A stretch of DNA of 64,000 bases from Escherichia coli (lineage in GTDB: Bacteria > Pseudomonadota > Gammaproteobacteria > Enterobacterales > Enterobacteriaceae): the NCBI RefSeq assembly GCF_017348835.2, contig NZ_CP071375.1; one strand, 5' to 3'. Each line of letters opens with the position of its first letter. The first letter of the stretch is position 1. Positions 61,752 through 62,132 of this stretch are shown in pieces. The position numbers and the translations under genes were made by a program. Under the pieces are notes generated by a model. The model was not told the origin of the DNA. It made no database searches and saw only the letters and a list, made by a program, of their open reading frames with translations.

Positions 61752-62132
61752 TCAAAGGCTCCAGGTATTTAACCCTTTTACCTCTTTCTCATAGAACCAT
61801 TTGTTCGTGTTAACAGCAACATAGGCTGCTACGGCAATTCCCAGAATGTTAACGCCAATTAATGCACCAACAAATAGAGATAGAATGCCAAGTAATAGAA
61901 CTATAATTGCTTTTTTCCATAAGCCCAGAACAAATAAATAGATCCAGGAACAGAAGAAAGCAATGAAATTCATTTGAATAGTTAATCGTTGTCTTACTTT
62001 TAATGCTTTAAATGCTGCTTTATATTCTGGTGTTGCTCCCCAGAATCCAGGAAAGCCATGTTGATCATAAAAATTAAATCGGTATTTCTATTTTTCACTT
62101 AATGAACCATCGTTCATATATTCCTTACTCAT
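61752..62132 (-). pseudogene. yigF: yigF-like small membrane protein frame interrupted by an in-frame TAG at codon 15 (plus 62088-62090); 73-aa downstream ORF 61752-61973 remains open
   Basis: SD (GGAG) plus ATG at 62132 opens a 126-codon frame MSKEYMNDGSLSEK*KYRFNFYDQHGFPGFWGATPEY...MNFIAFF...; stop read directly. Confidence 0.4.

Follow-up and report, generated by a model that had tools for sequence, protein, structure and literature searches.

A single-base amber mutation is predicted to inactivate yigF in a pig-associated Escherichia coli lineage

The yigF reading frame in the window, by which we mean the whole 64,000-nucleotide stretch of Escherichia coli DNA analysed here, is interrupted by an amber codon at the position of Trp15. 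The explanation that we favour, with high confidence, is that YigF is cut short after 14 residues by a spontaneous G:C>A:T transition, which occurred recently in the ancestor of strains PE164 and F2_81, and that the resulting pseudogene persists because the gene is dispensable. In the proposed sequence of events, the transition would have turned the Trp15 codon of yigF from TGG to TAG in the common ancestor of the pig-associated PE164/F2_81 lineage. Ribosomes starting from the native ATG would then stop after 14 residues, and the full-length 126-residue DUF2628 inner-membrane protein would not be made.

An amber codon replaces Trp15 of yigF

We used translation of the minus strand and alignment with intact alleles to define the features of the interrupted gene, which are as follows.

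62138..62141, minus strand: Shine-Dalgarno sequence GGAG, five bases 5' of the native yigF ATG
61752..62132, minus strand: putative yigF pseudogene, a 126-codon DUF2628 frame broken at codon 15 (basis, translation and the RefSeq pseudo flag)
62091..62132, minus strand: residual 14-codon open reading frame (ORF), MSKEYMNDGSLSEK, the sole product expected from the native start
62088..62090, minus strand: amber TAG in place of Trp15 TGG (basis, alignment with the intact FDAARGOS_1058 and K-12 alleles)
61752..61973, minus strand: distal 73-residue ORF from Met54, with hydrophobic segments and without a ribosome-binding site

The native ATG occupies positions 62132-62130 of the minus strand and the frame ends at 61752. 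Its beginning reads ATG AGT AAG GAA TAT ATG AAC GAT GGT TCA TTA AGT GAA AAA TAG AAA TAC..., and its translation is MSKEYMNDGSLSEK*KYRFNFYDQHGFPGFW...NTWSL*, corresponding to 126 codons and a terminal stop, with codon 15 as the single internal stop. No in-frame ATG, GTG or TTG was found between the TAG and Met54, and the sole open distal ORF is therefore that at 61752-61973 (73 residues). These results agree with the original prediction, made from the letters of the window, of a minus-strand ATG at 62132 preceded by a Shine-Dalgarno sequence, a 126-codon yigF frame with TAG at codon 15 (62090-62088), and a 73-residue ORF as the only part left open. With an in-frame stop inside a conserved coding region, the yigF of the window has the characteristics of a nonsense-mutation pseudogene.

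A search with 501 bases around yigF in 5,426 complete E. coli genomes returned one match at 100% identity, PE164, and many with one mismatch. Alignment with one of the intact alleles, that of FDAARGOS_1058, gave a single difference in the 501 bases, at the middle base of yigF codon 15 (TGG in FDAARGOS_1058, TAG in the window). Codon 15 is also TGG in the K-12 alignment. The mutated base is position 62089, where the change is G>A on the coding strand and C>T on the plus strand. The earlier proposal that a single G to A change (TGG to TAG) would explain the stop thus holds against both FDAARGOS_1058 and K-12, and the alignment with other E. coli yigF sequences that had been suggested as a check shows TGG at codon 15 in the intact alleles.

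The K-12 gene is otherwise a close counterpart of that in the window. It encodes a 126-residue DUF2628 protein (WP_000032581.1, also the product of the intact FDAARGOS_1058 allele) and shares with the window its place, flanked by yigG and the convergent corA, its start, its Shine-Dalgarno sequence and its stop. The remaining coding differences between the two number eight, all of them synonymous and none non-synonymous, and the 125 other residues of the protein are all identical, whereas codon 15 is TGG in K-12 and TAG in the window. K-12 yigF also has a GGGGGG run where the window has GGGGAG (62036..62041, minus strand).

Because the window allele differs by one defined base from an otherwise identical intact allele, chance is not at issue. 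The lesion is probably recent, since no second change separates the TAG allele from its nearest intact relative. We therefore read the window allele as W15*, which a single G>A transition would have produced in a frame that is intact elsewhere and, as judged from the substitution rates given below, maintained by selection.

The amber allele is shared by two genomes

We assessed the distribution of the lesion with a 61-mer centred on the TAG. It matched exactly in two of the 2,381 complete E. coli genomes that hold the stretch. One of these, PE164, is a pig isolate from Nanjing, China, described as a porcine aEPEC/ExPEC hybrid in a paper that does not discuss yigF or pseudogenes (PMC12233904). 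The other, F2_81, comes from a pig rectal swab in Australia. Across 25 kb, identity with the window is 100.0% for PE164 and 99.9% for F2_81, against 98.8% for the next-best genome, and in the 2001 bases surrounding yigF F2_81 matches the window without a difference. PE164 and F2_81 form one pig-associated lineage, and the sequence of the window cannot be told apart from that of PE164. The RefSeq annotation (PGAP) marks yigF as pseudo, with the remark 'internal stop', in both genomes.

Reference orthologues do not carry a stop at this codon. The TAG 61-mer is missing from 2,379 of the 2,381 genomes, and codon 15 is TGG in the sequences that we read, K-12 included, apart from a TGA in one draft assembly that is described below. 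The reading of the stop as a strain-specific nonsense allele, one of three put forward in the original prediction, is accordingly the one that the data uphold: W15* arises by one base and is found in 2 of 2,381 genomes. A metagenome scan with a TAG 43-mer hit no contigs, but the TGG control hit just six, so that this zero is uninformative.

Another of the three readings was a sequencing or assembly error, with TGG in the real genome and yigF intact. The base is confined to two genomes that are close relatives, and F2_81 would be the sole independent record of the base if the window should be the PE164 assembly. However, PE164 (Nanjing, China) and F2_81 (Australia) belong to separate projects and have the same base; the change replaces one base in non-repetitive sequence and does not concern the length of a homopolymer; and the two genomes are otherwise identical over the same 2 kb. 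Because two assemblies from different laboratories and continents share the substitution in non-repetitive sequence, we regard an error as extremely unlikely.

The yigF locus varies among E. coli genomes

On the minus strand of the window the gene order is yigI, rarD, yigG, yigF, and corA converges on them from the plus strand, ending at 61709. Two features flank yigF.

62146..62526, minus strand: yigG, the intact upstream neighbour, with its stop 13 nt before the yigF ATG (NCBIfam NF008474, 255.7 bits)
61721..61745, on both strands: GC-rich, terminator-like hairpin between the convergent yigF and corA stops, with a T-run on the yigF side

No gene lies 3' of yigF on its strand, so that a polar effect of the nonsense codon is precluded. 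The TAG allele probably persists because yigF is dispensable and nothing lies downstream of it.

The yigG ORF is open for 146 residues from a TTG (62146-62586, minus strand), and RefSeq annotates 126 residues from the ATG at 62526. The NF008474 model has 138 positions, of which the 126-residue yigG product matches 13-138 only, so that yigG may in reality begin further upstream than annotated.

The interval between corA and rarD (window positions 61710-62620) is variable among E. coli genomes. A K-12-type yigG-yigF pair occupies it in about 2,400 genomes, and a divergent yigG-yigF pair, with 74% nucleotide and 69% protein identity and near-identical flanks, is found in about 566, including ST131 and AR_0058. 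Other genomes have in this place a YPO3983-family (DUF3289) gene paired with a DUF943 gene, together with a duplicated 147-bp fragment of the corA 3' end, and some have no genes between corA and rarD. In ST648 the YPO3983/DUF943 pair is found alongside yigGF. The contigs inspected for this interval were those of ST648 (L011), AR_0058 (L013), O111:H- strain 11128 (L014) and Z1323CEC0015 (L015). In O111:H- strain 11128, rarD is annotated as frameshifted (L014, 3095-3977). Across all 5,426 complete genomes, yigF was undetectable in 2,403 (about 44%).

The lost residue is invariant and Met54 is not a usable restart

With Trp15 restored, YigF matches the Pfam family DUF2628 (PF10947; gathering threshold 23 bits) at 40.6 bits, with residues 17-117 aligned to profile positions 9-91 of 93. 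NCBIfam has no model for YigF, and the literature that we searched on yigF and DUF2628 yielded nothing functional and no phenotype. We aligned 22 full-length homologues, with identities as low as 41%, that come from Escherichia, Superficieibacter, Enterobacter and Pseudomonas. In this set M1, K14, W15, R18, F19 and F21 do not vary (KW..RF.F motif). The frame in the window is not open across the whole DUF2628 domain, as the stop replaces the invariant W15 of the K-W-x2-R-F-x-F motif. The yigF of the window is therefore best described as a disrupted member of the family, a likely pseudogene rather than a functional member.

The ratio of non-synonymous to synonymous substitution (dN/dS) between two E. 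coli allele classes of yigF is 0.15 overall, 0.29 for codons 1-53 and 0.09 for codons 54-126. The value for codons 1-53 indicates that the N-terminal part is coding and constrained, and the ratios as a whole point to purifying selection on the intact frame.

The third reading in the original prediction took the internal methionine, Met54, for the true start of the gene. In that case yigF would still work in the window, with the 73-residue ORF translated alone and supplying the membrane part of the protein. This ORF retains hydrophobic segments and, aligned to profile positions 23-91, still passes the DUF2628 cutoff of 23 with 28 bits, and the same 73-residue call is widespread in public gene predictions. 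However, no motif resembling a Shine-Dalgarno sequence occurs within 25 nt upstream of Met54 (AGTAAGACAACGATTAACTATTCAA), compared with GGAG before the first ATG, and 114 nt separate Met54 from the stop that precedes it. In translational coupling, such a distance is generally too great for efficient reinitiation. Moreover, orthologues use the upstream start, and the methionine at position 54 is not a conserved residue: V, L, T, C or G replaces it in other homologues, and the alignment as a whole has M, V, L, T, C, G and N there. A product restarted at Met54 would also miss the most conserved motif of the family, the invariant one near the N terminus, and the public 73-residue calls come from other broken alleles in every contig that we examined.

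A short isoform would be expected to have a conserved internal start with a ribosome-binding site, and Met54 has neither. We therefore rejected Met54 as the start on three grounds, the missing Shine-Dalgarno sequence, the poor conservation of the residue and the loss of the N-terminal motif, and consider a working yigF product from this position highly improbable. Weak internal initiation might nevertheless yield some truncated product of the 73-residue ORF, given that this ORF passes the DUF2628 threshold (28 versus 23).

Suppression of the amber codon

The amber codon could be harmless if it were read through, by a suppressor tRNA or in a leaky context, to give useful full-length YigF. Low-level natural read-through of UAG does occur in E. 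coli, and the tRNA genes that we inspected are part of the strain's set. Among these genes, namely trpT, glnV/glnX and the tyrosine tRNAs, we found no suppressor. The tRNA-Trp gene trpT, which lies in the window (5463-5538), has the normal, wild-type CCA anticodon. When we read the PE164 tRNA-Gln cluster directly, both CUG-type genes (glnV and glnX) were wild type with CTG anticodons. The supF allele of tRNA-Tyr had an exact match in none of 5,425 genomes. The supE allele of tRNA-Gln matched in 155 genomes and, among the matches listed, was limited to laboratory K-12 derivatives, which serve as a positive control. Nor did we detect a dedicated recoding signal next to the TAG: the flanks are base for base identical to those of the intact FDAARGOS_1058 allele, which argues that no such element has evolved. 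For the three routes to suppression that were checked, we consider useful read-through barely credible.

The lesion resembles the classical amber alleles suppressed by supE, supF or trpT(Su7) in its codon mechanism, a one-step change of TGG to TAG that leads to premature termination. It differs from them in that supE, supF and trpT(Su7) are all absent from this background, and it is consequently expected to be null rather than conditional.

The window also holds tRNA-Glu, tRNA-Asp and tRNA-Trp genes within 1941-5538, arranged as one would expect where an rRNA operon ends, and an Arg-His-Leu-Pro tRNA cluster at 40783-41219. The tRNAs at both places have standard anticodons throughout.

Other yigF lesions in E. 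coli

The exact 73-residue distal ORF (cluster P0106) is common in public gene calls, occurring in 3,977 blocks of the collection, where it is deposited as 'Inner membrane protein' or 'ABC-type proline/glycine betaine transport system permease subunit'. We inspected six contigs with this ORF (L005-L010), and each has a yigF lesion upstream of Met54. The idea that the ORF represents a commonly called separate gene was therefore rejected, as it is the remnant of a disrupted yigF in all six, and the names under which it is deposited are misleading.

Three kinds of lesion were found in these contigs. The first, present in L006, L007, L008 and L010, removes one base from the GGGGGG run of codons 30-32 (around position 930). 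Several unrelated genomes have this shortened run, whereas the window lacks the slippery GGGGGG altogether. The corresponding site in the window is as follows.

62036..62041, minus strand: GGGGAG of the window haplotype, in place of the K-12-type GGGGGG that is shortened to G5 in other yigF pseudogenes (basis, alignment)

The resulting G5 allele (G6>G5; O6:H16 2011EL-1370-2 and others) was found in five complete genomes, one of which is marked 'frameshifted' by PGAP. Misread homopolymers could account for some of the G5 calls. The second is Q48 CAA>TAA (L005 and L007; equivalent to window positions 61989-61991), which occurs together with A43T in 50 complete genomes, including ST648-named ones (L011). 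In ST648 this Q48* gene is annotated with 'internal stop'. The third is a W15 TGG>TGA change in the draft assembly L009 (GCA_037635705.1), on a K-12-type background, which represents a second independent nonsense mutation at codon 15.

Like the window allele, these alleles are single-event knock-outs in the N-terminal third of the gene that leave the same 73-residue ORF. However, their sites and haplotype backgrounds differ from that of the window, and each lesion therefore arose independently. Of the alleles counted, TAG is the least frequent, with 2 genomes as against 5 for G5 and 50 for Q48*. Together the three counted lesions make up 57 of about 2400 genomes, or roughly 2% of carriers, a share that lies in the range of, and does not exceed, the pseudogene load usual across the E. 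coli genome. We conclude that yigF is dispensable in E. coli.

Discussion

The inactivation of yigF in PE164 and F2_81 is already on record, in that RefSeq flags the gene as a pseudogene, and it is an ordinary gene-inactivating mutation. We take its loss to be neutral. The same outcome could also arise if inactivation of yigF had been selected in certain pathogenic lineages. Independent knock-outs do occur in the aEPEC/ExPEC pig lineage (PMC12233904), in the Q48* genomes including ST648, by frameshift in O6:H16 and through the TGA at codon 15. However, the counted lesions affect only about one carrier in 50, Trp codons and G-runs are by nature prone to becoming stops and frameshifts, the intact alleles show the mark of purifying selection, and the literature offers no yigF phenotype. 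An adaptive loss is thus very unlikely. We likewise think it very unlikely that the wider pattern of recurrent loss (TAG, TGA, Q48*, frameshift and locus replacement) is adaptive in host-adapted or pathogenic lineages, or that the 73-residue remnant is functional.

Neutral loss by a single transition therefore remains our preferred account. Its practical use is for annotation: the public 73-residue 'inner membrane protein' calls are remnants of broken yigF in every contig examined and not a separate short gene. For the organism the consequence would be that one pig-associated aEPEC/ExPEC lineage has lost one uncharacterised small membrane protein from its proteome, which probably matters little, and yigF is confirmed as a gene that E. 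coli can dispense with and often loses.
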